A DNA stretch of 63,918 nt, counting the filler, from Hausera hauseri (Eukaryota): NCBI GenBank assembly GCA_046269625.1. It is 12 parts of 12 records of this genome, joined end to end, with 100 filler letters (N's around TTAATTAATTAA, not from the genome) between each part and the next. Parts side by side here need not be neighbours in the genome. Positions count along the whole stretch, not along the records: positions 22,778 to 30,054 come from JBJURY010025119.1; 11 more parts are not named here. One strand, written 5' to 3'. Positions 16,576 through 36,520 of this stretch are shown here, in pieces; positions within the stretch are counted from its first letter, which is position 1, and every line of letters begins with the position of its first letter. Position numbers and translations under genes: made by a program. The notes under the pieces were generated by a model, which saw only the letters and a list, made by a program, of their open reading frames with translations, searched no databases and was not told the origin of the DNA.

Positions 16576-16792
16576 NNNNNNNNNNNNNNNNNNNNNNNNN
16601 NNNNNNNNNNNNNNNNNNNTTAATTAATTAANNNNNNNNNNNNNNNNNNNNNNNNNNNNNNNNNNNNNNNNNNNNAGCAGCGCCCTTTCATCAATTGGTC
16701 GTAGCTCCATCAGTCAAGACCAACCCCGACTGAATTGAACAACTTCCCCACTAACATCTCGCCGCAAATCTGGCCAGCGGCGAGCGGTTGAT

Positions 16793-16820
16793 TGTCCCCA
16801 CGGCGCGCGCCGTGGAGACA
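16793..16820 (-). terminator. GC-rich hairpin after the last phage-like gene (terminator-like)
   Basis: The near-perfect palindrome TGTCCCCACGGCGCGCGCCGTGGAGACA lies about 10 nt past the stop at 16830. There is no U-tract. Confidence 0.5.
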
Positions 16821-16829
16821 GGCCAGAAC

Positions 16830-18305
16830 TCAGAAAGACCAATTCCGCAAAAATTTCAGCCGCGTCTCACCCACGGCTCCCGTCTGCGTATACCCGCACG
16901 CGCCGACGCGGAGCGGGTCAGCGCTCGTGCATTGCGATCCGGATGCAACGATTTCCGTCCAGCCCGCTTCAGCAGCCGGGTCAGTCCCACCGTTGTTATA
17001 GAACGTCTGGAACCCGGCGCCAATACGGCGCAGGCGCACGTAAATATAACTCGCGCTGGCAACGCCAGTCGCCGTCGTCTCGGCGACGGTCGAAGCCGCG
17101 TGTTCATCGAGGCGAATCGGGATGGCATTCGTCCCGTTGTCCTTGTCCCCGACATACACGCCCAACCCAGACGACGGATGCCGCGCGCCGACGAGCGCGC
17201 GCCGGATCGCGCTGCCTGAGCCAGCGTCGCAGCGCAAACGCGCCCAAATGTCGAAATCCCCAGCCACCAACTGATATAGCAGCCGGCCAGCGCTCGGCAG
17301 CGTTCCCGATGGCGGAGTTTGCGTCAGTTCACCGCTCGACGCTTCCACACTCCAGCCCGCGGACGTGGTCGACCAATATGAATCGATCACGCCATACGCG
17401 AACTCGTCCGCCAACGGACGGAAATACTCGACAACGATGCAGTGACGCCGCGCCACATCATTGGACGGAAAGTGAATCTGAAGTACATAGAAGAGCCGGC
17501 CATCATAAAAGTCTTCGAGGATATCGCCGACCTCGATGTCGGCCGACCTTGGAGCTTTCACCAGACCGGTCACACCCTCTTCGACTTGGCCGCGAGCGAC
17601 GATCTGCGGAGCGCCAGCGGACTGCGCATAGATCGTGACCCACGCCGGGTTCACAACGCACGAGCTCACATTCCCCAGCCGATGCCGGGTGAATTTTGTC
17701 CGGGGGCCGCGATGGGTTATCGCGGTCGAAGCAGTCACGGCGCCACCCGATCCGCCGCCCGATCCGCCAGACAGAGCATCAGTGCACTCGAAATTGTCGA
17801 AATCAGGGTGCTTGCTGAGAACGTTGGAATAGGCGATCAGCCCGGGCTTGCCAGAAGAGTGCGTAGTATCAGTCTGCGTGATCCGAAGCACGCCCCCGAC
17901 GTGGACAGTGATCGTTGTCCCCGCGCACGTCAGTTTGATGGTTGTCGGCGTTTGCTCGGCAATCCCAGCAGCATAGTCGGCAATGAACGTCGCCGACCCG
18001 GCAACTATTTTGTACAACTCGACGGCGCCCGCATTCACACGGGCCCAATACCCATTACCAGAGGCATCAAGACGGGCTCCGACCCCGCCAATTGAATCTC
18101 CGGTTACCTCATCCACCCATTCACAGTCAGCCTGCGAATAGTGGTCATCCGGGAAAGAACTTTCAGCACGGCGAACCGTCGTGTCCGCATAGAGCGATAC
18201 GCCGCGCGCCGTCGCGCTGCCCTGCGTCACCCACATCGACCCGGAAACAACTTCCCAGTTGCCGTTATCGAACGTGGATCGGTTAAAGTCATCTGGAATA
18301 GCCAT
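16830..18305 (-). CDS. Phage-like virion protein: ConA/LamG-like domain, Gly-Ser linker, head-closure-like domain, second ConA-like domain
   Basis: 491-aa GC-rich ORF. It starts DDFNRS and has YWARV...IKLTCAGTTITVHVGG...GKPGL...DFDNF (lectin fold). A SGGSGGGSGG linker is followed by ADIEVGDILEDFYDGRLFYVLQI. The C-terminus has GDFDIWARL...YVRLRRIG...LRVG. Confidence 0.65.
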   Translation of the reverse strand: MAIPDDFNRSTFDNGNWEVVSGSMWVTQGSATARGVSLYADTTVRRAESSFPDDHYSQADCEWVDEVTGDSIGGVGARLDASGNGYWARVNAGAVELYKIVAGSATFIADYAAGIAEQTPTTIKLTCAGTTITVHVGGVLRITQTDTTHSSGKPGLIAYSNVLSKHPDFDNFECTDALSGGSGGGSGGAVTASTAITHRGPRTKFTRHRLGNVSSCVVNPAWVTIYAQSAGAPQIVARGQVEEGVTGLVKAPRSADIEVGDILEDFYDGRLFYVLQIHFPSNDVARRHCIVVEYFRPLADEFAYGVIDSYWSTTSAGWSVEASSGELTQTPPSGTLPSAGRLLYQLVAGDFDIWARLRCDAGSGSAIRRALVGARHPSSGLGVYVGDKDNGTNAIPIRLDEHAASTVAETTATGVASASYIYVRLRRIGAGFQTFYNNGGTDPAAEAGWTEIVASGSQCTSADPLRVGACGYTQTGAVGETRLKFLRNWSF

Positions 18306-18645
18306 CAGGATTTCGCGCGCTCTGAAGCCTGGGGCTTCAGGCCAGCCGTCCGGGCCTCATTGGCTGGTATCGCAGGATCGGTTTTGAGCGAGTAGGTCTT
18401 GACCGTCGCGCCAGGCATCGCGCCGAATTCAGCTTGCACCAATGCGAACTGCGCGGCAGTGAGCGCNNNNNNNNNNACCAGTAATGACTTGCAGCCTTGG
18501 CCACGTCGCCATCAGCGTTCAGCCCCACCGTGAAAGTGCGCTCGCCGCCAACAGAATCAACGCTCGCTTTCATCAAAGCGTTTGCCGGCAGCGCCTCAGC
18601 AGCTGGAATAATGATCAACACTCGGTGGACATATAAGGTTGCCAT
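18305..18645 (-). CDS. Hypothetical phage protein (~113 aa; frame broken by a 10-N gap)
   Basis: After the gap the frame ALTAAQFALVQAEFGAMPGATVKTYSLK...SERAKS* ends in a TGATG overlap with the next start at 18305. The start at 18645 also overlaps the upstream stop. Confidence 0.7.
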
Positions 18646-19370
18646 CAGAACAAGGCGTACTTCGAGTTGAGATAGGTTTCGACGGACTGCCTATCCGTTG
18701 TCCCCAGGTTGGTGTTATACACCAGAATCTCAGCGATATCGCCGCCAAGAATGTTGCCGCTATCAGCGGACGCACCAACTGCTAAACTCTTCGAATTCGA
18801 CAACGTGCGCGACTCCGTGCCAGCCCCCCCTGCGGTTCCGTCGAGGTAGGTCTTGAGCTGGTTCGCGCCAGTGCCCTCGCGAACCACGCAAATCAATTTG
18901 AATTCAGCCCCAACAGGGCCAATCGTGATATCAGATGAGCCATTCCAATAGAGATAATTGGTCGCATCACAATAGAGAAAGACTCCATTGTCCGCTGCTG
19001 CCGCGTTGTCCTTGCAAATCAGCACGTCAGTCCCACCCGACGTGACCTTCGCCACCACGAACGCGGAAAAATTGCCCGTGCCAAAATCAAAGTCCGCGTC
19101 ATCGGCGCGCGTCAGCGCGTCATCGACATCGTCCCAGCGCACAACCGGCTTGCCATTCAACTCCGCCGTCTGGAGCGTGGGCTTCGCGGAACTGGTCGCC
19201 TGCAACACATCGTTCGTCGCCGAACCACTGTCGGCCCACGTCCCTACAGGATCGCCGTCTGACAGGCCGAGGGAATCAGCCTTCAGCCAGAGAACCAATC
19301 CAGAAAGCTGATCGGGGGAGAATGCAGCGGCGCCTTTCCCCGCGCCAAGCAAAAGCATGTCACGGCTCAC
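18645..19370 (-). CDS. LamG/concanavalin A-like beta-sandwich protein (phage tail/decoration type)
   Basis: GLVLWLKAD..L..GDPVGTWAD.G...NGKPVVRWD..DD...GDIAEILVYNTNL....RQSVETYLNSKY is a typical LamG-like pattern. Confidence 0.8.
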   Translation of the reverse strand: MSRDMLLLGAGKGAAAFSPDQLSGLVLWLKADSLGLSDGDPVGTWADSGSATNDVLQATSSAKPTLQTAELNGKPVVRWDDVDDALTRADDADFDFGTGNFSAFVVAKVTSGGTDVLICKDNAAAADNGVFLYCDATNYLYWNGSSDITIGPVGAEFKLICVVREGTGANQLKTYLDGTAGGAGTESRTLSNSKSLAVGASADSGNILGGDIAEILVYNTNLGTTDRQSVETYLNSKYALF

Positions 19371-19537
19371 TTCCCAGCCTCCCGATCGTGGATCTCCTCC
19401 AGTCGCGCGATCCGTTTATCGTGATACCTGATTTGCTCTTCGAGTCGCGCCAGCGCCACACGCACGCCCCAGAACGCGCCGAGCGCCGACACTACGCCGG
19501 AAAGCAACGACATCACGATAGGAATCCAAGTTTGCAT
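19367..19537 (-). CDS. Small membrane protein, holin/XhlA-like (56 aa; below the ORF-track cutoff)
   Basis: MQTWIPIVMSLLSGVVSALGAFWGVRVALARLEEQIRYHDKRIARLEEIHDREAGK* has one TM helix plus a coiled coil. Its stop overlaps the next GTG start (GTGA). Confidence 0.6.
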   Translation of the reverse strand: MQTWIPIVMSLLSGVVSALGAFWGVRVALARLEEQIRYHDKRIARLEEIHDREAGK

Positions 19538-19543
19538 GGCTCA

Positions 19544-20030
19544 TCAGAAGCGAACGCCAACGCCGGCGCCCAAACGCGTGTAGCGCACGGGACGCTCATC
19601 GATCCATTGAAAGTCCACCTGCGCGGGCCGCACGAAATACCTGCCAAAATTCACATCCAAGCCGCCGCCGGCACTGACTGTTACTCGGTCAAAGTTAGCC
19701 ATCGTCGCGGCATCGAAGCGCGTCGAGCCGAACAGCGCGCGGCCGAACACGGCAACGCGATCCTCGGCGCCGAGATTGCGACCGACTGAGAGGCCGCCGA
19801 GAAACTGAACGCGATTGAGAAGGTCATTCGTGTCGTCGTGGTAGGAGAAGTCAGCCACGGCGCCGATGCGCCACTTCCCTACCTCGGCGACCTTGTAATC
19901 AGCTGACAGATTTCCGCCTGGCAGGTTCTGGAACGCAACATTCAGGTTCTGGAACGTGCCAGTAATTTTCACGGTGTCTTGCGCCATCGCACCAACAGCG
20001 CAGAAAAGCAAAAGCAAAAAGACTCCAAGT
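19544..20030 (-). CDS. Outer-membrane beta-barrel protein (8-strand OmpW/Ail-like), true start lost at the junction
   Basis: Signal peptide KLGVFLLLLFCAVGAMA|Q, alternating beta strands, AGGGLDVNF and a C-terminal GAGVGVRF with terminal Phe. Confidence 0.8.
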
Positions 20031-20328
20031 TTAAATAATATTTTACTGCAACGCCACATAACTGAAACTTTGTCTTGTAACCTTAAGAGTCAGGCCCAAG
20101 ATGCAGCTCCACCATCACGCAGCAGACCAGAGTGGGCAGGTAAGATTACTCATTGACTGAATATTATATTATAATTATAATTTAAATAATATTATGATGC
20201 GAAGCCACATAACTGAATCTTTGTCTTGTAGCCCTGAAGAGTCAGGAGCAAGATGCAGCTCCACATCACGCAGCAGCACAGAGTGGGCAGGTAAGATTAT
20301 TCATTAACTGAATATTATTATAATTATC
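20030..20328 (+). repeat. Two ~150-bp tandem units, each with a short exon-like segment (…TGTAG|…GGGCAG|GTAAG)
   Basis: Direct repeat 20030-20180 / 20181-20328. AT-rich, eukaryote-like. The first copy differs by scattered substitutions and indels and lacks the AG acceptor. Confidence 0.8.
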
Positions 20329-21454
20329 TAATGAAGAGGATGAGTCTGGTGAAGACCTGCTCTACATGAAAAGTGCCCTGAGATGTTAAATGATTCAACC
20401 CTTTAATGAAACTGGCCTGAATTGATCATAAGGCTTTGTAAAAAGGGGAGATTTGTGTTGAGTTATGACAATTTTTAAAATGTGGTTTAGTGTCAGGAGC
20501 AGAGCCAGGAGTGATGAGGGGATTGTTCCTGTCAGTATGAAAGAACAGGTGAGCTGTTGTAACTGTGTGAACAAGTATTAGTTCCAATATAAACACTTTC
20601 TAAACAACAGTAGTGACTCGTTATATTATTATCATTAAGAGTAAGATAGTAAATACATAAAGCCTGCAATGAAAGTATGAAAGTAATATGAAATAAGCCT
20701 GCACATTTTGCCATTGAAAATATATTAATTGGTTAAGTCAAAATGAGTTTTCCATATTAAATATACTAAAGCTTTACAGATTATTGTCCTGATGCAGGCT
20801 CAATAAATTTAGTCCTCTGGACAGATTCTTCTTTGTATCAAAAAGATTTCTTCAGTCTGAGGAGCTGAGACAAACTCAGTCATCGTTCCTCCTCGATAGA
20901 GAGGAACGATGGTTTGAGAGAGGAGAGAAGGAGGCCATCTTTGTGAAAAGAAACCGTCCATCATTAAACAGAGGTGGAGGCCTCCGTGTTCAACTGTCCC
21001 CCTCTTACAATGCTGTTATTGCCAGTATCTTACCGTTCATATAAAATATTTGATAATGTTCTTATAGAAACAATTCTTGAATAATGTTCACACTGTGTTA
21101 ATGCTGCATGTTTGTCTCAGGCTACTTCTTGTTCTGCCATTAACTCTAAAATATTTATTGAATAGTTTACATATGTAGGTAAAACTAGAAGTTGAACAAC
21201 CCATTAAAATACACCAGAATGCAGGAAATGGCATCTATTTTATTCAAAAACTTCTGGGGGAGGACCCCCAATGGCTACCAAGCCAAGAGCCATTGTTAGC
21301 ACTGAGGTTAAGCTAAAACTAAAGGGCATGTTTTAGAATTGCCCCTGATGTAAGGTTATAATTACATGATTTTAATAATAATTGGTCGTGATCTAAAGTG
21401 GGCCACTCTGAGGCTGAAAGTCCAGGGCTGAAAATGAGTCCCACTCCGGCCCTG
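20030..21454. mobile_element. Teleost-type non-autonomous hAT-like transposon remnant
   Basis: It contains CACCAGAATGCAGGAAAT...TCTGGGGGAGGACCCC (21213-21269), a motif I recall from fish DNA transposons, and ends ...CTCCGGCCCTG (CAGGGCCGG-type terminus). Confidence 0.4.
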
Positions 21455-22080
21455 TGTGTCACTGTCATTTCTTGTTGTGTGAAATGTGTAGGCTGTAGCT
21501 TGCTGATGCTAACTGGTTAGCTGCTTAGGACAACATATTTTGTTAACAGATGAAAATATTACCGTCCACACAGAAGGCAGGGGGCACCATTTAGCAGCAA
21601 CCCGATGGCTTGCATGCAACTTAGCCGGGGGGCGGGCTGGGCTGGGTTTGCTCACCCAGGGTGCCAAATAGGCTACGACCGCCACTGGTCACAGAGACAC
21701 ATGTTGCTGAAGAAGTGACTGAGACTGAGTCAAATGCAACCAGAGATTTACTTTCTTGTGATAGTATCAGAAAAAAAAAACAGTGGAGAGGCACACAGCA
21801 GGAGGCTGCATCTTCCTGTGCAGGTGAACATGGTGAGGCAAAAGAGGGGAAACAAAAGTAAGCACAGGGAATCTGGGACCCAAAATGGACTGAAATAACT
21901 ACCACCATTAAAAAATTTAAAAAAATCCTAGAGGAAACAGAATTAGAATGCAAAAAATATCTGATTTGCTTTAGTCTCACATTACATCATTGTAGATAGT
22001 GTGAAACTATAGTTTCTGGCAATGCAGAGGAAGTAAAACTTTTAATTAAATTCTGGGTCCTCGTGTAGAGATGTGTTAAA

Positions 22081-22094
22081 GCGCCATCTACTGG
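22081..22094 (-). promoter_or_regulatory. CTCF-consensus motif
   Basis: The reverse complement CCAGTAGATGGCGC matches the CCASYAGRKGGCRS core. Binding is untested. Confidence 0.45.
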
Positions 22095-22598
22095 TAGATA
22101 TGAGTTACTAAAAATATTTAATATGGGAAGATTTATAAAAAAAAGGTTTTTGGACGAAGCAGTTCACAAGTATCATCTGTAAACTTTTTGTTTGAGAATC
22201 TAAGAATTGAGATATGGATGCATTTGCTTTTTGTTATGTATACATTTTAAAAAGTGCTCTTATTGACCTTGTGTTTTCTGTGTTTTCTGTTGAAGCTTTT
22301 GAATTCACGGCGGTCTGTTGGTCGCTCCATTTTAAATGATGAAGAATGAGGGGGTGCCAACATGCCTGATGAGTACGAGACCGACACGAAGACAAAGACA
22401 CATGGAAAGTTTATCCACCTGAATGGAGAGCAGCAAAACTAGGACATTTTAGACAGATGCCAGTACAAACTTGCTGAGCTTCAAACAAAGTCCTGCAGAA
22501 TTTTTGGCTACATCGCAGAGTGCCCAGTGGGAAATGCAGCCTGAGGCAGCCTCCAAGAAGCACCAACAACTATTTTTTTTTACAAATGAAACCGTAGG

Positions 22599-22602
<4 letters not shown>

Positions 22603-22677
<75 letters not shown>
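22603..22677 (+). repeat. (TG)n microsatellite
   Basis: Perfect dinucleotide run reaching the contig end. Confidence 0.98.
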
Positions 22678-22777: not shown

Positions 22778-24050
22778 GTGATCTGAAGCCGTGCAGACAC
22801 ACAGGACACCATTTGCATCGTATTTGTTTTTTGATAAACTGATCATGATCCATAATCAGCAATCTATCCAAATTTGTCACGGCCACGTAATGATTCTTTT
22901 TCTTTTGCTGCAATAACAACAAATTTATTGAGCAACCATTTGGGTTTAGACTACCGTAAATTATATCCACATGGGGGATTTTGTAAATTTCTTCATTCGC
23001 CATCATTTCTACGATTGCATTGTACCGGAACACGTTGATTGTCAGTGTCGAATTACGCCCTTCAAATGTCGGAATGGATTTCAGTTTCATCGTCATCCAG
23101 CTTTCATCGAAATCCTATTCGGAAAAATATTTCTGATCCTGTTTTGGACGAGGTGCACTACGTTTGTCCACTTCGTCGTATTTCAATATCGCCAGAATAC
23201 TGTAAAGAAAGCGGTATCCGTCGTTAGTATTTTTTACATTCACTACCGCCAGAGACTGCTTCAGAACTGCAGGTGTCGGTATGAATGATTGCCCGAACAA
23301 ATATATTATGTCACTCCACTTCGTTACAATAAAGCCGAGAGTGACAATTCGTATAATTCGCCATCCACTACCCTTTTCCGTGCTGTTGACGATTTTCTCA
23401 TCGAGCTTTTCGCCTACATGGGCAATAAAATCGTCGGAATACAGTACGGCTCGATGTGACAGGTACCACTGTTTCCTGTCACCTTCCAAATTTTCAAATT
23501 CTGCAAGTGCATAATATTGCACTTTGTAGTGGTGGTGGTGTTTTTGGAATTTGGCCACCTCTATTTCCAACCGGTTACGCACATGAGCAGGTACATCCTT
23601 CAATTGCGTTGCTGTTTTCACCGTCATGCCCACCTTCATGTCCACGTACGATTTGTTCAGGTCATACTTGACTGTAATGTTGGCAATATTGGCCTCCTCT
23701 TCTTCTTTTTGATGCTGTTCCTGCTGCTGCTGCTCATGCTGGGCACTGTTTCTGATTAAGTCGTCAAGACTTATTAAAGCCTGATGTTTCCTACTGGTTG
23801 TTGTTGTTGTTGTTGAGGGGATGATGCTGCTGCTCTTGCCGCTGTTGTTGTTGTTGTCCATAAATATTTGTTTTTTCGACCGCTTAAACTGGTTTAAGTG
23901 GTCCTTGTGCAAATTATAGAATTGTTCATAGTTGATTTGATCATCATTATCAACTATAGAACAACAACTGGGACAAACAAATGGCCCGTTTACTGTGCAG
24001 CGTTGTGATAATGCCATAGTACTGCTCCATTGCAGTATGGCAACCATCAA
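22778..24050 (-). pseudogene. pPolB-associated N-terminal region (Polinton/adintovirus-like), frameshifted
   Basis: KGSGWRIIRI...QSFIPTPAVLKQSLAVVNVKNTNDGYRFLYSILA, then IPTFEGRNSTLTINVF...INLLLL...HYVAVTNLDRLL...WCPVCLHGF. This is the same motif series that precedes Exo I in contigs 2 and 9. Confidence 0.8.
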
Positions 24051-24092
24051 CGTTATGCACTTTACTAGTACAGTAGTGTAGATATGTGGGGC

Positions 24093-24149
24093 AATGCGTA
24101 AGCATCATCTATGGGCCGCGTAAACGGCCCGAGATGATGCTTGTGCATT
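24093..24149 (+). other. Long imperfect hairpin upstream of the pPolB N-terminus
   Basis: AATGC-GT-AAGCATCATCT-AT-GGGCCG-(CGTAAA)-CGGCCC-G-AGATGATGCTT-GT-GCATT. Confidence 0.85.
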
Positions 24150-24474
24150 TCGTAAAAGTCAGCGTACGGGCACTGCATTGAAATATTGCATGTTGGACAC
24201 ACATACGTATTCGTTCCAACAGTCTAATACTTCGCCATCTGCTGATGGCACTGCTCATGGTCTGTGTGTATGCGTAATACACAATACACGGGATAATGTT
24301 TGCATTTCTGAATGAGAAACAAATTAAAGTAAGCGTAAAATATATTAACTTATTTATACTTTAAATAAAATAAACACAACTTTTATGGTGGGTTGGGATG
24401 GTGGTGGTCTAAGGGCGACTATAAATATTTAGCACTCAATGTCACTCAAGTAAAACAAACAGAGAGTCAGACAG

Positions 24475-24753
24475 ATGGAAGAGTACATAGAAAGTGAGAT
24501 TTAGAGATTGACCGATGACATTTTGACCGGCCATGTGTTTCATGTTCAGTACCTATGTGAGCTGTGAGAAACGAAAATAATGAGCAGGCGAGAATATATT
24601 GAATTGATAGTCAGATCTCTGTTCGTAAAACGTATCGAGGATGAAATGAGACGAAAACAACAACAACAACAACGACGTATTAATTTCCTCATTGGGTTTG
24701 TATTTACTGCTTCACTTTGTATTGTAATGAAAAAGTTGATTAACCGTATTTAA
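24475..24753 (+). pseudogene. Small tail-anchored protein pseudogene (two in-frame stops)
   Basis: TATAAATA at 24420. The frame MEEYIESEI*...RRKQQQQQRRINFLIGFVFTASLCIVMKKLINRI* has a C-terminal hydrophobic helix. Confidence 0.4.
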
Positions 24754-24857
24754 CCACAAATATATAATTTCGCTACGTATTTGTTTTTATTGTGTGTGTG
24801 TGTTCAAGCTACATTGCAGTATAAATACTTGAGCTTTTCCTCACATAAGATTATACA

Positions 24858-25249
24858 ATGTCTCACTTAACGACACAACTCATTAGCTTATACCACTCAT
24901 TCGACGGTCTCCGGAACAACCTGTACAATTTCGATCGACCTTTGGATAATGCTTGATATTTGCCTCCGAAAGAGCTACTTCTACTTGTTGAGCAGAATTG
25001 AAGGGCACATTTGATCAAGAAATGACGACGACGACGACGACATTGGACTATAATAATAATCCTCGTCAATTTGTGACCGATTTTCTCAAACGTAGAGGTA
25101 GTAGTCAGACGGATTACATTCCTACTTGGCAGTCAGCAAATAAAATTTGCTTGAAGCAATATTGCAGTGTGGTTAATTCCAACGGTCTCGATCATTCTTC
25201 TTCTTCTCCGGAATTGGTTATTCCTTGCGGTTTGTGTAATCCGAATTGA
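24858..25249 (+). pseudogene. Small unknown gene remnant ending in CxxC
   Basis: TATAAATA at 24820 and ATG at 24858. After a stop and a frameshift it continues into ORF 24998-25249 (...ICLKQYC...PCGLCNPN*). Confidence 0.35.
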
Positions 25250-25280
25250 CTCGAAAGATTTAGTAGTAGTAGTAGTAGTA

Positions 25281-26526
25281 TCCTATAAAAAGAATAAAAG
25301 TTTGATGTGAACTTTTTCTTTTCTCATTACTCAGAACGAAGTAGGTGAGGAAAAGTGTTGTCCAAAACTAGGTCAGACAAAAAAGTTAGAGGTAGGTAAA
25401 TGGTGGGTAAATTAAATAAAAAAATTAAAATTATTACTAATAAAAATTATTAAAAGAAAAATAAAAATAAACAAACATTCATCTTCTGTTAGTGCAAATT
25501 TTCAACAAAAATGACGATAAACTAAGTGCAATGGTATTTATGTGTATGTCTTGGTATTACTTTACTGACAAGTACTGTTGACTTTGTGAAAACAGTGACT
25601 CCCAAAATAAAACCATATCTAACCAAATGTCCATTACTTCGACACACTGCCCTTCACGCCACTAGTAATAGAACGAATCATGAGAAAAAGTACATTTTAA
25701 TTAATATGAGCTTTTGGACACACACACGCCACAACTCATTATTTTGTTTTGCATGCAGGCATGTCTGGCGCGTAACGCACACTTGTTTCACGTCACGCCT
25801 CACCATTGCATGTGTCAACTCTTCGTATACCGGATTTGTCTTCTGCGACGCAACATGCAAAACCAACCGCACCACTAAACTCGCCGTTGTCGATTTGCGT
25901 TCACTTACCGGCGCTAACATCAATGGATCCACCTGCGTTTCCATTGGCGCCACCTTTTCTTCTCTCTCTCTCTCTCTTTTAACCGACTTTCCCCAAACAT
26001 GGGAACCCCTATGTTTCCCACATTATTAAAACTCTACTCTACACACACTTTCTCCTACCATCCCTGCAGAAATTTTGCTTTTTTTCCTTTTGCATTTCCC
26101 GACTTTGTCTTTTGCGACACACAAAAACCGACCACACCACTAAACTCACTGTTGTCGATTTGACCACAAACCGTTCATTTACGGTCGCTATCATCAATGG
26201 TTCCACCTGCGTTTCCATTGGCGCCACATTTTCTTCTTCTTCTTATCTTCCACCGACTTTCTCGCTTTTCCTAGACACGCGAACTCTATGTTCCCTACAT
26301 TATTCGAACGCCCGTACCCTACTATACACTTTCTCCTATCTATCCCTGCTCAAATTTTGCTTCTGGAAAAAGTTTGCTTTTTTCTTTTGCATTTTCCGGC
26401 TTTGTCTTTTGCAACGCGCAAAATCCGACCGCAACAATAAAATCGCCGTTGTCGAATTGACCAGTCAGCATGCGAGCCGCTTTTGATTGGTCAATCGGTG
26501 CGTGGGTGGATCCCCCGCTGGTCTAG
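25281..26526 (+). mobile_element. Possible non-autonomous Helitron-like insertion with internal ~280-bp tandem repeats
   Basis: It begins A|TCCTATAAAAAG and ends with the GC hairpin GCGTGGGTGGATCCCCCGC followed by TGGTCTAG. About 2.3 diverged repeat units start at ~25840, ~26105 and ~26400. Confidence 0.4.
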
Positions 26527-26955
26527 AACGCTCTTTTTTCCCTACTCACTTTCAATTTTATCTGTTAATTGTTTAAGAAGATTGCTAATATCGAAATCCT
26601 TTTCATAAATGTCAATTTCAGTAGCAAAGGCATTAGACTGGTAGATCATTGCTAGTTGATCCACATATTCATCAAATGGTCTTTCAACTGAACTTTCATC
26701 ATTTGTTTCTTCACAATCCTATTAAAATAATTAAGTCAAGTATATTGAACATAAAATTATACGCTTATCAGTGGGGATTTGTCATTACATTCACCAAATT
26801 CTTCTTCCATAATAATTCCATCAACAGTACTATGTTCATTTGGGTCAATAATTATGACCTTACCATTTTCATCAGTATCAACTCGAATGCAGTGCTCCAT
26901 TTTATTTCTTTTCAACTGAATTAATTTGTTTATATATTAATTTGTTTATATTCTG

Positions 26956-26979
26956 ATTGGTTGAAAATAAGTATAAATA
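26956..26979 (+). promoter_or_regulatory. Inverted CCAAT box (ATTGG) plus TATA box (TATAAATA) of the TBP-like gene; similar pair at 27456-27486
   Basis: GATTGGTTGA..GTATAAATA lies 26 nt before ATG 27005. GATTGGTTGA..GTATAAAC lies before ATG 27521. Confidence 0.6.
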
Positions 26980-27004
26980 GAAGTATGAGTGTGACATTTT
27001 AAAA

Positions 27005-27441
27005 ATGTTAGTTAATATTAATTATAAGGCGCATACGGATGCAAAAAATGTCCAACATCACCAGTTTAACGAATGGAAACCAAGACAGTGTATTCTTAAT
27101 TATGCCGATTACAAAATCATAATGTTCCCAAGAGGTAGTTATCGCATTATTGATTGTAAGGAACCTATTGTGGAATCTGATTTACCACTAAATATTAAAA
27201 TAGAAAGGCTTCAGTCAGTTACCATATGTGTGAATCTGAATGAAAATATAAATATGAATGACTTGGCACAAAAAGTACCAAGTTCATATGAGCCGGAATT
27301 ATTTCTACATTACGTCTAACAGAATTCAATCCACTATGTGTTAATGTTTTTCATAGTGGCAAAATTGTTAATCTCGGAATAAAGTCATTAGACTATAAGC
27401 ATATACTTGATACAATTTCATACATTTTACTTTCAATATGA
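27005..27441 (+). pseudogene. Minimal intronless TATA-binding-protein (TBP)-like gene with a single 1-nt frameshift at ~27305
   Basis: The ORF ends ...LQSVTICVNLNENINMNDLAQKVPSSYEPELF. Adding one base continues it as (P)TLRLTEFNPLCVNVFHSGKIVNLGIK...LLSI*. Compare TBP repeat 2: IQNMVGSCDV.FPIRLEGL...SSYEPELFPGLIYRM..P..VLLIFVSGKVVLTGAK. The repeat 1 equivalents are LVNINYKA and KIIMFPRGSYRIIDCK. Confidence 0.85.
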
Positions 27442-27726
27442 CTCATCGCGTTTTGATTGGTTGATTTTGAATGAAAAAGTATAAACGCTGATGTTTCATC
27501 AGAATATTTCATTTCTTAAAATGTCCTATTCACAATTTCCGACTTACCAGTCCAGTTTTTTGGTTAGTACGGGATTCAACAACCATTTTCACAATACGGT
27601 TTTGATTATCCACCACCACCACCAACAGCAACTTCAACACCAAAAAGTTTGTTTAATGTAGATTTGTTAATATGATTACATAGATGTATTTTAAAAGCAA
27701 TAAAAAGAATCAAACTTGATGATACA

Positions 27727-28137
27727 TTGGCTTTGTCCGATGATGAACAATTCAATGAGCCAACAATATTTCACGGATATGAAATACATATGTTGAAAAA
27801 ATGGACAATACCAACTTTGACAAATGTGGATATCCAAGAAAGCAACTATGGATTTTGTATCAAAAACCTAACTGATAAACAAAATGAAACTATTAATGAC
27901 GCTTTTGTCTCTATCCACCCAAAGTTTAATATGACTGAAAGAGATGTATTTATACGATCGGATGTAAATGACAAAATTATTGATTCTTATGGAAATGAAT
28001 TGTCGAATTATTGTCAAATATCAGATAAAGTAACTGAAGTCAAAATACAATTACAAGGATATAAGACAAAGAAAGATGCAATTCTTCCGGTTTGGATAAT
28101 ACATGAACTTTTACCGATTTACCGAGTTTTTGAATAA
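27727..28137 (+). CDS. Hypothetical element protein (possibly OB-fold/SSB-like); start uncertain
   Basis: 136-codon open frame in AT-rich DNA, intronless, on the same strand as the TBP-like gene. The fold guess comes from the beta-rich pattern only. Confidence 0.45.
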   Translation: MALSDDEQFNEPTIFHGYEIHMLKKWTIPTLTNVDIQESNYGFCIKNLTDKQNETINDAFVSIHPKFNMTERDVFIRSDVNDKIIDSYGNELSNYCQISDKVTEVKIQLQGYKTKKDAILPVWIIHELLPIYRVFE

Positions 28138-28139
28138 TT

Positions 28140-28572
28140 TTGAGTCCTACATAAAAAGTATTCAGTTTTTTGAGCTCTATCGACTGGTACAGGTTTCAAG
28201 TCCATATGACGTATCGATTTGAATATATATCAATTCGAATATTTCGAAAAAAATTTTCAAAATGAAATATCTCCGCAACAAAAAATCATATTGACATGGG
28301 ATAAAGTGGGTTAGATGCAGAAAAAAATTCTCTATCGAATACAGTTAAAATTGATGACCTATACTTTAAAATAAAATTCGATTTTCAGTGCTTAAAATAT
28401 TCGAAACGTAATATTGAAACCCTAAACGTCGCATTGACTTGCGATCAAGTTTGTCGGGATCAGGAAAATGTCCTCTATCAAATAAAATCAAAATTATCTA
28501 TTTCCAATTTTCTCGATAAAACTTGATTTTCGAATATTTGTCAAATATTTTTTTATTTTCTCATGTACCCTA
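28140..28572. mobile_element. Non-autonomous DNA transposon/MITE fragment
   Basis: Recurrent CTCTATCGA/CTCTATCAA subterminal motifs (28175, 28330, 28473), AAATATCTCCGCAAC, and a ...GTACCCTA terminus. Confidence 0.4.
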
Positions 28573-28717
28573 GCCGATAGCTGTTATTTAAACCAAAAAT
28601 CCCCCCAAAATGTTGTTTGCATGCAAAGATAATTATGTTTGTGTGTAATAACGTAAAAAATGCAATATACTTTTATTTATATAACAAATAAATCAGAAAT
28701 ATGTAGAAAGGAAATGT

Positions 28718-29930
28718 TTACACATTTGTACAATAATGTCCGTATGCGACACTTTTGTTCTTTGTTATCCACGGATGTTTGTCATCAAATGGGTCCAATG
28801 TCTTTTTTCTCGATTGGATTGTCATGAGCTGATGGATTTTAGTCAAAATTCGTTCCTGATTCATCATGGTGCTGCAACCGGTTTCAAATGCTTGTAAGTA
28901 GTTAGTGAACTGCAAATCGGTTTGTTTGAGATTGATGCCATTGCATTTGAGGACTGATTTACTTTCGGTTTTCAATGCATATGATTTCAGCCGTAGGAAA
29001 ATTGCCTCCTGATACTGAATGCAGCCCTTACTTTCGTCTTTAAATTTTCCAATTAGAGACGCAAAACGAGTCGAGTACAGTAGATCATTCTTGTTATAGT
29101 TCGAAGTTCCCAACTGTTCATTAGCTATCATTGATGGTAAGAGCTGCGATCTCAAATCAACTCCATGACACTCAAGAAAGAAACTGTCAGTGTCACCAGC
29201 AACAATATTAAGTTCACACTGGAACTGGTATATATAGTTCTCCAACTCTATATAATTTAGTTCATACATTCTCAACTTAGAAAGATTCAGAACATCTTGA
29301 CCAATGTATGAGTGTCTTTCTAATGTCACAATGTCTTTATCGAAAAGAACGGCAACTAGATCATCGGCTATTATAATGCTCGCTTTAAACTGGGCTTTTC
29401 TAGCATATGTAACTAACTTTTTAGAATTATTACACAATCTAAGGTTTTACCTTTTCAATAGGTCTTCAAGTGTTTTCCCATATAAGCTTATATTCTTAAG
29501 CTTAAAGAAATCTTTTTCAAAAGAATTATTTGCGGCAGCCATCCTTGCAGTATTTATATCTATGCAATCCTTAAATACATAACCCTGGTCAAACTTAACA
29601 GCCCGATGTACCTTTTCAACTACAGCGCCTAACTCGATGTACAACTGTAAGAGTCGATACTGAACAACATAGTTGGACTTACGCTCATGTGTCAGAAACA
29701 ATTCCTTTATTTTAGAACCAGGAGGACATTGGTCGATTGGGGCTAGAGGCAGTTGGTCCAACTTACCATGTTTGTCTGCAGGAATGCTTAAATCAACTTC
29801 AAAAACTAAGCCTCAGTTTTCCTTAACACAGTCAATGTAAGGCAATTGTTGGATTAGACTGATCAAAACGTCCTCATCGTAAATCTAAATCAGATTTGCA
29901 AATGGCAAAGATTGAGAAAAAGCCCATCCA
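28718..29930 (-). pseudogene. Protein-primed DNA polymerase B, C-terminal polymerase domain
   Basis: DQLPLAP, FFKLKNISLYGKTLEDL (motif B), AGDTDSFF (motif C), LIGKFKDE, LRLKSYA, KCNGI and LDPFDDK...SVAYGHY. Confidence 0.9.
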
Positions 29931-30154
29931 AAAACTCGTGCAATGCCTGGTGCGGGCCAGCGTCTCCAATTGTTTTAAAAATTTTCATTCATTCGCAAAT
30001 AATAACAACAATAAAAAAAAATAAATAAATAAAAAAAAAAAAAAAAAAAAAAAANNNNNNNNNNNNNNNNNNNNNNNNNNNNNNNNNNNNNNNNNNNNTT
30101 AATTAATTAANNNNNNNNNNNNNNNNNNNNNNNNNNNNNNNNNNNNNNNNNNNN

Positions 30155-30890
30155 GTTGCTGGCCGAAATTATTAGGGAACAGTTAGGTCTTTCCTAGAGT
30201 GTATTAGTTTTGGTTACATTGCTAGTAGTAGTTATGTGCTTTATTTAGAACATGTTTTCTAAATTAGTTTAATAATAAGTGTTAAATAAACATGTTAGTT
30301 AAAAGGACTTTACTAATAGTGAACATATAGACAAATACGTTAAATTTATTACATTAGTGAAAAGTGTTCTAGTTAAAAATGTTTGTTAAGTTTAGGATTC
30401 TAATTCTAATGCTAGAGAAAAGTCTGTAGTAAAAGTTAGGGCAAACTTACAGTACTGCTATTGGAAAATACGTGCTTACTATTAGCGTGTATCTTAGTTA
30501 TAATGTTTCTTTCCATGTATTCGTTAGTTAATAGCTAGCCTGTTTGCTTATTAGGTACTGACAGTCAATAATTAGTAGTATCGTAAAATTATTATTAAAT
30601 TTGGGTATAACTTTATATTACTATCTCGTTAGTGGAAAGCTATTTAGTAGTGAATAGTTAGTAATATCACACAATTATTACATGTTGCTAACAATATTTC
30701 TTTCCACAGAGTAGTTACATTACTATTTAGTGTACCAGCGGCTAGTTAGTTACAAGATTGTTAGTTATAAAATGTTTTCTAATTTAGTTAAACAGTATGT
30801 GTTAGATACACACGTTAGTTACGCATAGGAAAGGTTAGAAACTTACTAGTAGTGTGTATATTAGTTAAAGTATTTCTACAGTAAGGATCC
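30155..30890. repeat. AT-rich, TAGT-rich region with an imperfect ~520-bp-period repeat
   Basis: 30253-30320 (TGTTTTCTAAATTAGTTT...GTTAGTTA...TTACTAATAGTG) resembles 30773-30854. Confidence 0.5.
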
Positions 30891-31008
30891 GGTGGTTTTC
30901 TATTTCACAGAAACACAAGTGTGACGAGTGCGGAAGGGTTTTCCGAGGATTTGATAATTTCCAACGTCACCTGGAAACGGCACATGGTAAACAAAACACA
31001 ATTGGCAA

Positions 31009-34000
31009 TTGTGTGGGCACATGTATGGGCGGGTCAATAATTTGAAGACCCATCTGAAAAAACAACACAACAAACGACCCTCAGATGGTGAACTGGATGA
31101 ACCCTTGGCCAAGAAGACTAGACATGAAACCAAGAGAGAGAATGCGAGTACGAGTGTTAGTTCGATCGATGTCGGTGCGAGCGATAGTGAGTGAAAGCGA
31201 TGTTGGTGCTAGTGTGGTTGGCGCATTACCGAATGAATCCCTTCGCGATCTCCCTGCTGATCTTAGATCAGTGTATGTAGACAACTGGTTTGCCATTAAT
31301 ACACATAGCAATGTAAACAAACACCTATCAACTTATACTTTTTTCCATTCTCCCATTTCTGACCACAATAATAATAATAAGGCCATACATACATTACAAC
31401 ACGACTCAAACAACAAACCTTATACCGACAATCTCTGCTTTTTCAGATGTCTGGCCCTTTTTAACAAATGTCCCCTTAAAGACACTAGACAAGTTACACT
31501 ACAATTATTCAATCAATGATATGTTTTCCAGGGGGTTTCCCTGGTCGAACCATTCCCCAGTGTAGCGTTTGTAGACTTAGCTAGGCTCGAAGTTTGTTTT
31601 AATCTAAACATAGGCGTCTTCGAGTACATTGATCAGGTTCTCTTCCCCAAGGCTAGAAGCAGTAGTAATTTCCCCCGGACGTTGACGGTATTGTTCTTCA
31701 GTCAACATTTCTTATTCATTTCCAACATTAATAAGGCCGCTCATGCCGTTAGTTGTTCCAAATGCGGCAAGCTGTGGTAGCGCTACTGGTCCATGACAAA
31801 GCACGAGAAGACGTGTCAGGATGACGCAATAGTACAAGTTTGTAAAGGTGGCATCTATAACCCACTCAAAACGATCCTGGAAAAGATTTCTCAGCTCGGA
31901 ATCGAAGTTGATACTAAATATGTGTACTGTTTTCGTTCCACCTATGATTTCGAAACATACTTTGTAAAAAATGAATTGCCAAAGGAGACGAGTTCAACGC
32001 AATACGTCTTTCTTCACGCGCCTTTATCGGTCGCCATAGCCTCAAACATTCCAGGGTTTGAAAACCACAAGCTTATGTCAGTGAGGGATGTCCCCAAAAA
32101 CTGGTCAACAAGATGGTCAAGCATCTCGGGACAATCGCTGACGCCGCCTACGACATCTTATGCAAAGCTAGCCGAAATGAAGGCTACAGACAAGTTGGAA
32201 AGCTACTTGCGTGAGTTGTTGGTAATCGGGTTTAATTTCGGAAAGTACGACCTAAACGTTATTAAACCCTATTTGATTAAGGCTCTTTCCGACCTGGTCG
32301 GGAAAAAGGATGAAGCCGTTTCATCCGAGGTCGGAGATAAAACCGAGAAGGGCTCTTCCTCGACCAATCCTTTTATTTATATAGTTAAGAGAAATAACAA
32401 CTTCATGTGTCTAGGGACACAGAAGTTAAAGTTCCTCGATATTTGCAATTACCTCGCTCCCGGTTTTAATTACTGTAAATATAAGGTGGAAGAAACTAAA
32501 GGTTTCTTCTGTTACGAGTACGTAGATAGTTTACCAAGTTGGATGAAACTGTATACCTCCACACTCCGCCTTCCATTCGACACTTAAAAATAGCTACATT
32601 TCCGAAAAGGACTACGAATATTGTCAACGAGTAAGGAAAGTGGAGGGGATGCGTACCCTTAGGGACTTTCTCGTGTGGTACAACAACAGAGACATAGTCC
32701 CCTTTATAACAGCCTTTGATAGACAAGCCGCGTTTTATGCCGAGTTGGGGGTAGATATTTTTAAGCAGGCGATTAGTGTCCCAGGGTGACCTTAAATTTT
32801 TTTTTTTAAAACTCTGCCCACCGACGTTAGCTTTTCCTTGTTTTCCAAGCGCCAGCAAGATCTCCGCCAGACCCTTAGGGAGAATATAGTCAGGGGTCCT
32901 AGCATCATATATCATAGATTCCATACCGCCGGCAAGACGCGTATTAGGGGTGATACATCAGTTAAGAGTATTAAGGGTTATGACGTTAATGCTCTGTATC
33001 TCTGGGCTCTAATGCAAGATATGCCGACCGACTTTGCCATTGTAAGAACTTGTGAAGATGGGTTTAAGAAACATACCATTAATTCATCCACAAAGCAGAG
33101 TCGGGAATGGCTGGCGTGGATTGAACACGTGCATGGCATAACCCTCAAAACCCAATATAACGGCGGGGAAATGGTGATCGGTCTCAAGCACGACAAGGTT
33201 GATAGTTGGGATTAAGTATCGTGAACAGCCTACCAGTTTCGCGGGTGCCTGTTTCACGGACACCCAGATACCCCCATCACAGAAAGTCAAGTCGTGAATC
33301 CCATCAGTAAGAAGCCGCTGGCAGCTCTTTACGTAAAAACGTGCAAGGTGCGAGAATATCTCCCACACGAAGTCACTGTCGTCGAGCTATGGGAATGTGA
33401 ATGGATATCGATGAAAAAAGCTGACGCATCGATTGATGCATTTCTAAACACTACGCCTTTCAGGGCGCGAACCACGTTCCGACAGCTGCCGATCGAAGAA
33501 GAGATTCTCAAGGCCGTACAGAAAAACAAGTGCTTCAGTCTTATAGAATGTGATATACACCTACCAGACAATTTAAAAGAGTACTTTGCCGAAATGACGC
33601 CAATCTTTAAAAACATTGACGTCTCTAGGGACGACATTGGAGACTACCGTCAAAAACAAACTTTTCACGAATCCACGTCGAACTCTGGTAGGGAGTTATA
33701 AAGGCGACAAGAGCCTCCTGGCGACTACTCTATTTAAATGGTATTTGAAAAAAGGATTACAAGTGACCAAGATATATCGGGTGATTGAATATCACCCTGT
33801 GGCTTGTTTCAAAAAATTTGGGGACCGCTTCTCCGATGCTCGGCGCCAGTGGTACAAAAATGACTCTGACTCTATTACAAGTGAGACGATGGAATTGCCC
33901 GGCAACTCTAACTATGGGAATACATTGACCAACAAAGCCAAGCACATGGCGATATCTTATTGTCGGCGTAAAGACACGACAAAATGCGTCAACAACCCAT

Positions 34001-34709
34001 ACTTACAAAAAATGACTCAAATTTCCGACGAGCTGTTCGAGATAGAGACACTTAAGAAAAAGATAGTCTGGGATCTGTCCCAACAGATAGTCTTCTTTGT
34101 GTACCAGTACGCAAAGTTACGTATGTTACAGTTTTACTACGACTTTATAGACAAGTTCGTAGACAGCTCCGATTTCCAGTTGTGTGAAATGGACACGGAC
34201 AGTTTGTATATGACGTTAAGCGTGGACGACTTGGCCGAAGCAGTCAAACCGTGACGTAAACATCGGTTTTACCGAGTTTACGACCGTTGGTTTCCCTCAG
34301 AAGTTTGCCCGGCCCATGGATCCTATTTGTAACTAGAGCTGGTAAGGCAGGGGTAGACTGTCAGGCTTGTAGGGACAAGAAATTATACGATAAAAGGACT
34401 CCTGGCCTCTATAAGCTAGAATTCTCCCGCAAAGGGATGATATCTCTTTGCAGCAAAACGTACCATTGTTTTGGAGACTACAGTAAAACAAGCACAAAAG
34501 GCCTCACCAAAAAACACAACACCCCACACAAGGACACCTTTCTAGAAGTCTTAGACACGCAAACACCACAGGGGCGTACGAACGTAGCTTTTAATATACA
34601 CAAATCGACCGATTACACATATACTCAACACAGAAACTCTTTATCACATTTGTACATAATGAGACAAGTACAATCTAATAATGTTAGCACCATTCCCCTA
34701 GCAATTTAG
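31009..34709 (+). pseudogene. Near full-length protein-primed DNA polymerase B (Polinton-like) with N-terminal C2H2 finger and internal VSR/PD-(D/E)xK-like insert; many frameshifts
   Basis: CGHMYGRVNNLKTHLKKQH, DNLCFFRCLAL, YDFETY (Exo I), GFNFGKYDLNVI (Exo II), YDVNALYLWAL (motif A), VDSWD...YQFRGCLFHGHP...LWECEW (nuclease insert), GNSNYGNT (motif B), EMDTDS (motif C) and RTPGLYKLE. Confidence 0.9.
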
Positions 34710-36271
34710 ATCCTTATTATCCCCTTTGTGTAGAGAATTTCAGTATTCTACAAAATGTCCCCGAGTGTAATGTATGTGTATGAGTATTTAATATTTATAT
34801 CATGTTGTATATATGTTGTAAAAATTGGGAAAAATAAATATTATGAAAATAGCAGCGAGTTTTGTTTCTTCTTATAATCAAAGTTGTTATGTTTGTGTTT
34901 ACATCTTTATCTTCCTCGGTTTATCATTTCACAGAGAAGAACAAACAGTTGAGGCGTGTAGACCAGTGTAAAACATGAAGCTGGGAACAGAATGGCCGGT
35001 ATAATGAATCAGTCCTTTTACTAAACAATACCACTATCACCGCCAAGACATTTCAATAATCAAGGTACATTTTAAGTTATGTAACCAAGTCATGTGTCAC
35101 GCGAAACCACTGTGATTTTACATGTAGGCCTATAGAAATATGGGAAAAAAAGTATACCCGTGAGAACACCATGCTAGGCGCTAATCTAAATGGTATATTT
35201 TTTATGGTCATAACTGAACTGCAGAAATGAAACCACTTAGTGAACCTCAGTAGCACATATATTTTCCATTAATGCAAGTTATTATGTTTTTGTGTGGTTT
35301 TACACCAGAGCTTCCATTCTCCAGCCTTTAAGGATTTCGCAGAGAAGCAAGAATGTAATATAACGCAAATAAAACAAAATTATCATATTTGAAGAACTTA
35401 CCAGAGACAACTTTATTTCTGCACTGTAATGCGTTAAACAATCATTTTAAAGGCTATACATAAATAGATAAAATCCGTCAAGTCTTAACTGCAGGAACTG
35501 AACACTTTCGAGGAACACTTATTTCCATCCGTTTGCGACGGATACATTAAAAAAATTAACATTTCACAATTAGTTTTTTTTTTTTTTTATTTTAGCTCAC
35601 AATTAAAAAAGATGGACTGTGGTAAGACAATAAAAGTGCAATGGGGTCGTGGAAAAAAAAGCAAATGGTAGTAAAGTCTTAAAAGGAAAAAAAAGAGAAC
35701 AAGACGACGTTACGACCACGAGGTTTTCGTCAGGCACACAAAGAGACAACGGACAAGGGTATACAAACGAACTACATACTGTTAAGCCAGCATTGGATTA
35801 GATGAAGCGACAGAGTTAGTGCTGATACTTTTTATACAAATAGATTGCAAAATAATCAAACATAAATAGTTATTCAGTCAAGAAACTGTGGAAAAAATCT
35901 TAATGGCTACGGAATCAGGGACTAAGAGTGACAATGATAAAGCACGGAAAAACAAATCAAATATAATCAAATCAAGCAGGAGAAATAAAACAAGATAAAA
36001 GAAACTACAATTATAATCAACTGGAATTAATAAAAGCAGCCCATTTTTTTTTCCATTTTATGTATTTTAATAAAAGGCCCGGGGTAAATGCCTTAAATAT
36101 CAACTTGGACGTGAAAAAGAAGCAATTAAAATAAATGTTAATTCTTTAATCTGCTGGACTAGAACCTACTGACTCGAACTGGTAGTTCAAAATGACGTTG
36201 CTCCTCTTTAAGATATTGTGACAAGATGAGGGAAGTACGCTAGAGTATTTGACATGCGACGACTACATAAT

Positions 36272-36416
36272 AGTATACCTGTATATCAATTACAGTGAAC
36301 CCAGTATACCTGTATATCAATTACAGTGAACCCAGTATAACTGTATATCAATTACAGTGAACCCAGTATACCTGTATATCAATTACAGTGAACCCAGTAT
36401 ACCTGTATATCAATTA
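36272..36416 (+). repeat. 31-bp minisatellite, ~4.7 copies
   Basis: Unit AGTATACCTGTATATCAATTACAGTGAACCC at 36272, 36303, 36334, 36365 and 36396, with no spacers. Confidence 0.95.
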
Positions 36417-36520
36417 AAAGNNNNNNNNNNNNNNNNNNNNNNNNNNNNNNNNNNNNNNNNNNNNTTAATTAATTAANNNNNNNNNNNNNNNNNNNNNNNN
36501 NNNNNNNNNNNNNNNNNNNN

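Follow-up and report, generated by a model that had tools for sequence, protein, structure and literature searches.

The window (the whole stretch of DNA analyzed here, 63,918 nucleotides from Hausera hauseri) carries a broken gene that is almost certainly a pseudogene copy of a miniature TATA-binding protein (mini-TBP) of Polintons. Its intact relatives make up a large family under purifying selection, and their product is a member of the TBP family, not canonical TBP. We directly observed the TBP fold, the linkage to Polintons, the purifying selection, the pattern of residues on the protein surfaces and two promoter classes in the carrier elements. As to function, we lean toward a role of intact mini-TBP as the element's late-promoter factor, predicted to bind (T)ATAAAC and to recruit host TFIIB and Pol II.

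The broken mini-TBP copy and its contig

The window is composed of separate contigs strung together with N/TTAATTAA spacers, and the TBP gene lies in a contig of 7,277 nt (22778-30054). The other contigs contain gypsy-type retrotransposons, a nicotinic-receptor ligand-binding exon and further fragments of Polinton polymerases, contents that point to an animal genome. The features of the TBP contig are as follows.

22779..24104, minus strand: N-terminal part of a Polinton polymerase, truncated by the end of the contig; aligns with residues 16-258 of the polymerase from L016 (35% over 251 aa, E 3e-36); one in-frame stop
24463..24753, plus strand: small gene with a hydrophobic C terminus (cluster 9), decayed; 37% over 62 aa (E 1e-10)
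25859..26463, no strand assigned: direct repeat of about 270-300 nt in three degenerate copies, seen in the sequence
26542..26900, minus strand: short ORF, broken and pointing away from the TBP gene; TATAAACA lies 33 and 49 nt ahead of its ATG
26956..26979, plus strand: putative host-type promoter signals of the TBP gene, a reverse CCAAT (ATTGG, 26956) and TATAAA (26972), 33 nt before the ATG
27005..27441, plus strand: mini-TBP gene, broken copy, with a frame break near 27305
27521..28137, plus strand: conserved neighbor gene (cluster 1); 31% over 118 aa to an ORF of L010 (E 7e-11)
28718..29944, minus strand: C-terminal half of a family-B DNA polymerase of Polinton type; aligns with residues 672-1079 of the polymerase from L016 (45% over 411 aa, E 4e-99); three in-frame stops

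As the sequence-only reading had noticed, a 104-aa ORF on the plus strand (27005-27319) loses its TBP-like frame directly after SSYEPELF; TBP-like text (LRLTEFNPLCVNVFHSGKIVNLGIK...) resumes in a different frame and runs on until a stop codon whose last base is 27441. When each piece is scanned on its own, they match consecutive stretches of the Pfam TBP profile (positions 4-38, E 0.006, and 50-69, E 0.019). Intact relatives that are 72-73% identical to the window copy are 146 aa long; in the sequence-only reading, restoring one base near 27305 gives a protein of about 145 aa. By themselves, the pieces reach 16.9 and 15.2 bits against Pfam TBP, both under the 22.9-bit cutoff, which four intact relatives exceed with 44.7 to 57.9 bits. 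A profile built from the family scores the same pieces at 102.9 and 44.8 bits, compared with 6.2 bits for the best of 1,200 shuffled frames from the same contig. The first piece is identical to the intact relative P0001 at 73 of 100 residues and deviates from the family at four near-invariant positions, and the second aligns with residues 102-146 of P0001. Since the start methionine coincides with that of the intact relatives, the gene has neither an N-terminal extension nor an intron, in line with what had been suggested.

Ten public runs contain part of this region. In one of them (X1), 15,100 short variant contigs fall on 1.7 kb of the region and 53,436 on 6.95 kb, the latter covering all 30 bins; such numbers are those given by high-copy repeats, and we therefore regard the contig as multi-copy. 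The break near 27305 is not common to the crossing contigs (assembled contigs, not reads) in three of four runs, the fourth having no crossing row, so the break looks private to the window copy, although a sequencing error in the assembly may be its source instead. The genes neighboring the TBP copy also carry stops and frame breaks. Judged from its sequence, the window copy is most likely no longer functional, a relic from an active family.

The polymerase stop at 28718 lies 1,277 nt from the TBP stop on the opposite strand, matching the distance of 1.3 kb that had been given for the pPolB C terminus. The L016 polymerase, to which both window halves align, in turn matches the polymerase of the complete Polinton L064 (E 2e-144). 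Neither the window halves nor the scanned neighbor ORFs gave a Pfam polymerase match, and the polymerase is presumably protein primed, as is usual for the family it belongs to. On the contig, an accessory block sits between the C-terminal half of the polymerase (right) and its N-terminal part (left), both on the same strand, with no virion module; this layout may mean that the element is a deletion derivative, that copies lie in tandem or that the region was rearranged. No ATPase, integrase or capsid gene was found on the contig, and neither terminal inverted repeats nor a target-site duplication was found in it or in loci L009 and L016, all three of which are cut. An (AGT)6 run at 25262 resembles a Polinton terminus, but a search for its inverted counterpart gave nothing, and the run may instead be a repeated codon. 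A poly(A) run stands at the contig end, about 65 nt beyond the polymerase homology. Cluster 9 lies directly upstream of the packaging ATPase in five of the seven loci that have it; a Pfam scan of this small membrane-tailed gene gave no match, leaving a Bcl-2 label unsupported.

Decayed fragments of Polinton-type polymerases also occur in window contigs 4936-10584 (together with a gypsy element), 30155-36420 (labeled from motifs and a weak alignment) and 44981-49930, none of which has a TBP match. Contig 16676-22677 is GC-rich and bacterial or phage-like in its first 3.5 kb (LamG-like and outer-membrane beta-barrel matches) and AT-rich with a GT repeat at its end; it is possibly a chimera or contamination.

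The family and its Polinton carriers

Intact family members are 144 to 192 aa long (median, 150). In a profile search, 764 of 1,601 candidate proteins reached an E value of 1e-5 or better; the best 120 of these 764 measure 107 to 192 aa and are nearly all unnamed, and the lower ranks may include canonical TBPs. Among 1.84 billion representatives at 50% identity, 221 score 1e-10 or better. When intact loci at 60-99% identity were compared in pairs, which are mutually non-independent, dN/dS was 0.45 or lower in 51 of 52 pairs, and the exception has a dS of 0.022. A search among proteins of 337-2000 aa, in which 7,994 candidates were scored, gave only four canonical TBPs, which is weak evidence against multidomain forms. 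No family member was found in a tblastn search of a phage collection or in scans of IMG/VR, one of which gave three weak, canonical-like TBPs; IMG/VR likewise held no close relatives of the capsid or the ATPase. One family relative of 219 aa (P0209) appears to have duplicated its C-lobe, giving three lobes in all. Four eukaryote-type TBPs (L073, L074, L075 and L079) lie on contigs of genomes labeled as bacteria, likely because DNA of eukaryotes or giant viruses was wrongly binned with them.

A quick IQ-TREE tree of 83 rows is split by a long branch (SH-aLRT 97) into 44 family rows and 39 rows of TBPs from archaea, eukaryotes and viruses of giant-virus type. The tree is unrooted, was built without L072 and without TRF2/TBPL1, herpesvirus and poxvirus rows, and names no donor; within this sampling, the family stands apart from cellular TBPs and does not nest among them. 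These data bear on the possibility that the gene is a processed pseudogene or a diverged paralogue of host TBP/TRF that came to lie near pPolB by chance. Such an origin would suit an intronless and broken gene, and an Atlas feature match to the TBPL1 cluster at 0.94 points the same way, TRF2 being absent from the tree. However, hundreds of intact relatives are under selection, the family shares 20-25% identity with cellular TBP, the long branch sets it apart from the sampled cellular and giant-virus rows, its Polinton context recurs, and the whole contig is multi-copy. This explanation is already largely refuted, and we give it next to no weight. Neither a missing TBP fold nor a lone pseudogene nested within host TBP/TRF, the two outcomes on which the sequence-only reading had staked itself, was found.

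A metagenome scan gave 60 TBP loci. Counting as core Polinton genes those for the ATPase, integrase, capsid, protease, pPolB and penton-like protein, at least one was present in 24 of the 60 loci, in 9 of the 11 loci of at least 4 kb and in 18 of 33 TBP clusters (70% identity). The ATPase is the most frequent (16 loci), followed by integrase (11), protease (10), major capsid protein (9), penton-like protein (8) and polymerase (3). A core or shared accessory gene occurs in 53 of the 60 loci, and the remaining seven are all shorter than 1.6 kb. Pfam identifies the ATPase as Pox_A32, the integrase as rve and the protease as Peptidase_C5, and a model of the capsid protein (pLDDT 70) matches the double-jelly-roll capsids of PBCV-1, iridovirus and mavirus (E 1e-13); the penton-like protein is presumed to be such mainly from its position. 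Two loci, L009 and L016, represent most of an element, with an accessory block including TBP, the ATPase, integrase, penton-like protein, capsid and polymerase. The proposed pPolB virus or element as the carrier is thus upheld by recurrent linkage to Polinton genes, but "pPolB neighborhood" was too narrow a description, for the carriers are a full Polinton lineage that encodes integrase and capsid.

Several accessory genes accompany TBP. Cluster 1 is found in 22 of the 60 loci as well as in the window contig, where its C-terminal ORF (27790-28137) is open and its 5' part is either broken or a separate exon. A GT...AG intron-like stretch of about 45-50 nt often precedes the cluster 1 ORF (L016:1502-2135, L017, L018, L022, L033, L034, L045), and clusters 5 and 1 may be two exons of one gene; the window gene at 27521-28137 may be built likewise. 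Where cluster 1 is absent, TBP is adjoined by one of two other families without annotation, cluster 6 (L043, L044, L046, L048, L050, L051, L053, L054, L057) or cluster 15 (L027, L028, L035, L038, L041, L048). By its motifs, the cluster 1 product may resemble an OB-fold single-stranded DNA (ssDNA)-binding protein, and clusters 1, 6 and 15 share a similar beta-rich terminal motif that may correspond to one of viral ssDNA-binding proteins; PDB profiles and the Atlas gave no supporting match for this label in cluster 1. Cluster 3, which has a conserved Cys/His-rich composition and an N-terminal D-x-E motif, often lies directly before TBP (L009:9591-10052 and 13 other loci). It is presumed to be exonuclease-like, a label that found no support in Pfam or the PDB. 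A broken cluster 3 copy is also present at 46058-46292 in another contig of the window, beside polymerase. Further cargo or flanking genes near TBP encode an E2 ubiquitin-conjugating domain, a dual-specificity phosphatase, a RING finger, C2H2 fingers, a phospholipase A2-like domain and a leucine-rich-repeat protein (L009:225-719, L018:4008-4316, L047:1710-2168, L055:1513-1908, L060:2-358, L028:1918-3327).

The company of these genes raises the possibility that the saddle was repurposed for replication or packaging and binds termini or origins together with the putative ssDNA-binding protein encoded next to it. A neighbor from cluster 1, 6 or 15 is present in 36 of the 60 loci, and Rep initiators appear in the VIA structure listing (Z 6.8, rmsd 5.0). 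However, a Z of 6.8 is within the range of common arrangements, the ssDNA-binding label lacks PDB and Atlas support, and the glutamates of the TFIIB-binding stirrup are kept (see below). We consider such a role improbable.

The gene is not wholly unrecorded, because a "TBP" label is placed on a MELD virus or related element in the legend of Fig. 5 of PMC8502044 (2021). That element resembles ours in carrying a TBP-like gene in a midsize pPolB element with pPolB, integrase, A32 ATPase, adenain and a double-jelly-roll capsid. In contrast to the present analysis, the legend offers a label without family size, structure, residue pattern or promoter, and the label does not establish that the two genes are of the same family. 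In the literature searched, we found no account of the family or of the ATAAAC motif beyond this legend, although figures and supplements may name the family, and a term search of PMC11161782, PMC11131425, 10.64898/2026.06.19.733378 and 10.64898/2026.10.13.758929 returned no mention of TATA. The claim that this is not a standard Polinton gene consequently holds insofar as no family description was found beyond the PMC8502044 legend, and it fails insofar as a TBP-like gene had already been labeled there.

Fold and contact surfaces of the saddle

The model of P0001 (pLDDT 95.7) has the two-lobe, pseudosymmetric saddle of TBP. Its top Foldseek matches are all TBPs (E 2e-9), and residues 1-146 superimpose on residues 66-238 of yeast TBP (Z 13.2, rmsd 2.5 Å, 146 aligned). 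Since all 146 residues align across both lobes, the weaker repeat suspected in the N-terminal half is real, and with 20-25% identity to cellular TBP the description of the protein as a highly diverged TBP is borne out. Relative to canonical TBP (PF00352; yeast 1ytb and human 1cdw, Z 13.2-13.3), mini-TBP thus shares the whole-length saddle, three intercalating phenylalanines, the first asparagine and the YEPELFP stirrup. It differs in being 27 residues shorter than yeast TBP, in having turns in the model in place of N-lobe helices H1 and H2, in the replacement of the first phenylalanine by proline and in the invariant Asn, Arg, Thr and Ser found at hydrophobic DNA-facing positions. The H2 region is 13 residues shorter in the profile alignment and is modeled as a three-residue turn.

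To describe these surfaces, residues were counted over 146 diverse representatives, the denominators being the aligned segments that cover each column. Of the four sites of intercalating phenylalanines, three are kept (Phe41 in 120/121, Phe100 in 140/142 and Phe116 in 136/136), and the first is proline in 101/107 segments (115/116 in another alignment). Polar residues have replaced others on the DNA face (Asn6 in 69/73, Arg47 in 118/122, Asn114 in 133/136 and Arg104 in 102/142, with position 73 also swapped). In yeast numbering, with the register set by the alignment to the model, Asn stands in place of V71 and L205, Arg in place of V122 and I194, Thr or Ser in place of V161 and Ser in place of N159, all highly conserved. 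Thus, the first base-reading asparagine is kept and the second is serine in 113/116. Because the polar substitutions are near invariant, the DNA face appears to be respecified and not decayed.

The surfaces that meet protein partners show a different pattern. According to PMC7221094, the C-lobe stirrup glutamates bind TFIIB, and of five positions in the N-lobe contacted by TFIIA, TAF1, Mot1 and Brf, three sit on H2. In the family, both glutamates are retained (Glu96 in 126/142 and Glu98 in 138/142), whereas the basic H2 patch of canonical TBP is missing, the helix being gone in the model and replaced by the 13-residue gap in the alignment. No Pfam match to TFIIB was obtained among 91 neighbor ORFs scanned (24 + 67); with no TFIIB-like gene found in the elements, host TFIIB is the expected partner. 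The sequence-only reading had left open whether the protein redirects host Pol II initiation or jams it. The anatomy of the model favors redirection of Pol II to the element's own genes.

TBPs of viral origin are known from herpesviruses, poxviruses and giant viruses. The best BFVD match of mini-TBP is a giant-virus or large-virus TBP (E 2e-8), and as described in PMC7221094 the TBPs of Nucleocytoviricota and other large viruses are likewise virus encoded and have lost the N-lobe regulatory patch. In most viral TBPs, according to the same source, the TFIIB glutamates are poorly conserved and a viral TFIIB is present in almost all such viruses; mini-TBP, in contrast, keeps the glutamates, has no TFIIB match among its neighbors and rides on a carrier of about 15-20 kb in which no RNA polymerase was seen. 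Matches to herpesvirus proteins in BFVD are weak (E 3e-3 to 5e-3). KSHV ORF24, as reported in 10.1101/2025.08.25.672222, recognizes a variant TATT box through a polar face rich in Asn, which occupies positions that are hydrophobic in TBP, the trend that mini-TBP also shows. This kind of DNA face, with N-x-N in its first strand, is shared by mini-TBP and the herpesvirus TBP mimics, EBV BcRF1 and HCMV UL87 among them. A variant TATA signal before late genes is a further likeness, for mini-TBP in the form of a candidate motif. The herpesvirus mimics, as that source describes them, are large proteins of several domains; they contact Pol II directly, depend on five viral partners, have four phenylalanines and lack the TFIIB glutamates, whereas mini-TBP is a bare 146-aa saddle in which these glutamates are kept. 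The resemblance is likely convergence, and mini-TBP, although it is no herpesvirus late TBP, likely acts in a similar way.

Promoter classes and the proposed late factor

Upstream regions in the carrier elements fall into two classes. TBP and its early-type neighbors frequently combine a TATA box with CCAAT and the initiator-like motif TCAYW; among 50 TBP upstream regions, a TATA-type box is present in 24 and the initiator-like motif in 34. Virion genes feature ATAAAC 22-65 nt before the ATG (30/49 regions, versus 7/98 for other genes; P = 3e-12, a value that is inflated because the motif and the gene groups were picked after viewing the sequences and because the loci and assemblies are related). 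The initiator-like motif shows the opposite distribution, with 3/49 virion regions versus 52/98 others. By virion class, ATAAAC precedes the ATPase in 14/14 cases, c4 in 7/10, the capsid gene in 5/7, the penton-like gene in 3/7, c11 in 1/6 and the protease in 0/5; ahead of capsid genes, it falls within the upstream coding sequence. Shuffled virion regions gave a mean of 2.6 matches and a maximum of 8 in 1,000 shuffles, the reverse motif was found in 0/49, and the background was 296 of 9,004 tiles. The motif is also positioned, since 39 of 69 matches lie 31-38 nt before the ATG, in the context T-ATAAAC-A. Some nonvirion genes have it as well, namely, the exonuclease-like gene (6/9) and c6 (3/5).

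In Polintons without TBP, ATAAAC was found before 0 of 16 ATPase, penton, capsid and protease genes, versus 22 of 33 genes of the same four classes in TBP carriers. These controls are five elements (two complete and three partial) with no TBP profile match in six frames; all of them are Polintons or virophage-like elements of a distant lineage, which means that the motif and TBP may each simply mark a lineage, and one control ATPase start is probably misplaced. Left out were L065, where phage-like genes adjoin a fragment of polymerase; L146, in which virion genes could not be identified; L142/L066, which share their contig with L064; and the capsid gene of L145, whose upstream region is cut. 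One control gene that is not a core virion gene (L064, 13687) has the motif at 38 nt.

How should the respecified saddle and the two promoter classes be read together? One possibility is that mini-TBP acts as a decoy: by sequestering TFIIB or sitting on TATA-like DNA, it would lower host transcription, and ATAAAC would be read by host factors. The TFIIB stirrup is its best-kept partner surface, proline stands in place of the first intercalating phenylalanine, and the TBP gene itself has an early-type promoter, all of which a decoy would accommodate. Yet the DNA face is invariantly respecified instead of degenerate, which a pure TFIIB sponge would not need, and a distinct, positioned motif lies before virion genes and is missing in the TBP-less controls; host shut-off would also presumably gain an integrating element little. 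We regard a decoy as unlikely. Against the late-promoter reading, in turn, ATAAACA is a forkhead consensus, TATAAAC is plausibly also a host TBP site, and mini-TBP has lost one of the four intercalating phenylalanines and the second asparagine.

Alternatively, mini-TBP might be a general, regulation-proof substitute that replaces host TBP at every promoter of the element, as in germline cells whose TBP is scarce or specialized, without late specificity. Loss of H2, the docking site of TFIIA, TAF1, Mot1 and Brf according to PMC7221094, is in keeping with this, and TATA begins both promoter classes. The invariant polar substitutions nonetheless suggest altered specificity, and the sixth base and the initiator set the promoter classes clearly apart, making a general substitute rather unlikely.

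For the late-promoter factor that we prefer, the following course is envisaged. TBP and its neighbors would be made early from host-type CCAAT/TATA/initiator promoters; the rewired polar saddle would then read (T)ATAAAC(A), preferring TATAAACA over TATAAAAG, and the retained E-P-E stirrup would dock host TFIIB. Loss of H2 from the N-lobe would free mini-TBP from TFIIA, TAF1, Mot1 and Brf, which bind there. The packaging ATPase, capsid and core genes would thereby be turned on late, with transcripts predicted to start 25-30 nt downstream of the motif. More tentatively, a widespread lineage of Polintons of about 15-20 kb could run an early/late cascade with this single 146-aa factor, which would be the smallest two-lobe TBP, respecified for TATAAAC(A), linked to host TFIIB and blind to TFIID, TFIIA and Mot1. 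If so, it would constitute an orthogonal, one-protein late-transcription system that arose independently of herpesviruses, and such "transposons" would possess a regulated virion-making phase without a helper virus. The question bears on how Polintons control their capsid genes and on whether animal Polintons make particles without a helper, and a small intact protein with a candidate promoter of 7-8 nt makes it directly testable. In this naturally minimal TBP, moreover, DNA recognition and the docking of TFIIB are uncoupled from the regulatory lobe, which is useful for the study of TBP specificity, and mini-TBP might offer an orthogonal promoter tool.

The TBP-less elements have an upstream feature of their own: in L064, L143, L144 and L145, an A-rich TAA(T)AAAAA run lies directly before the ATG of most genes.
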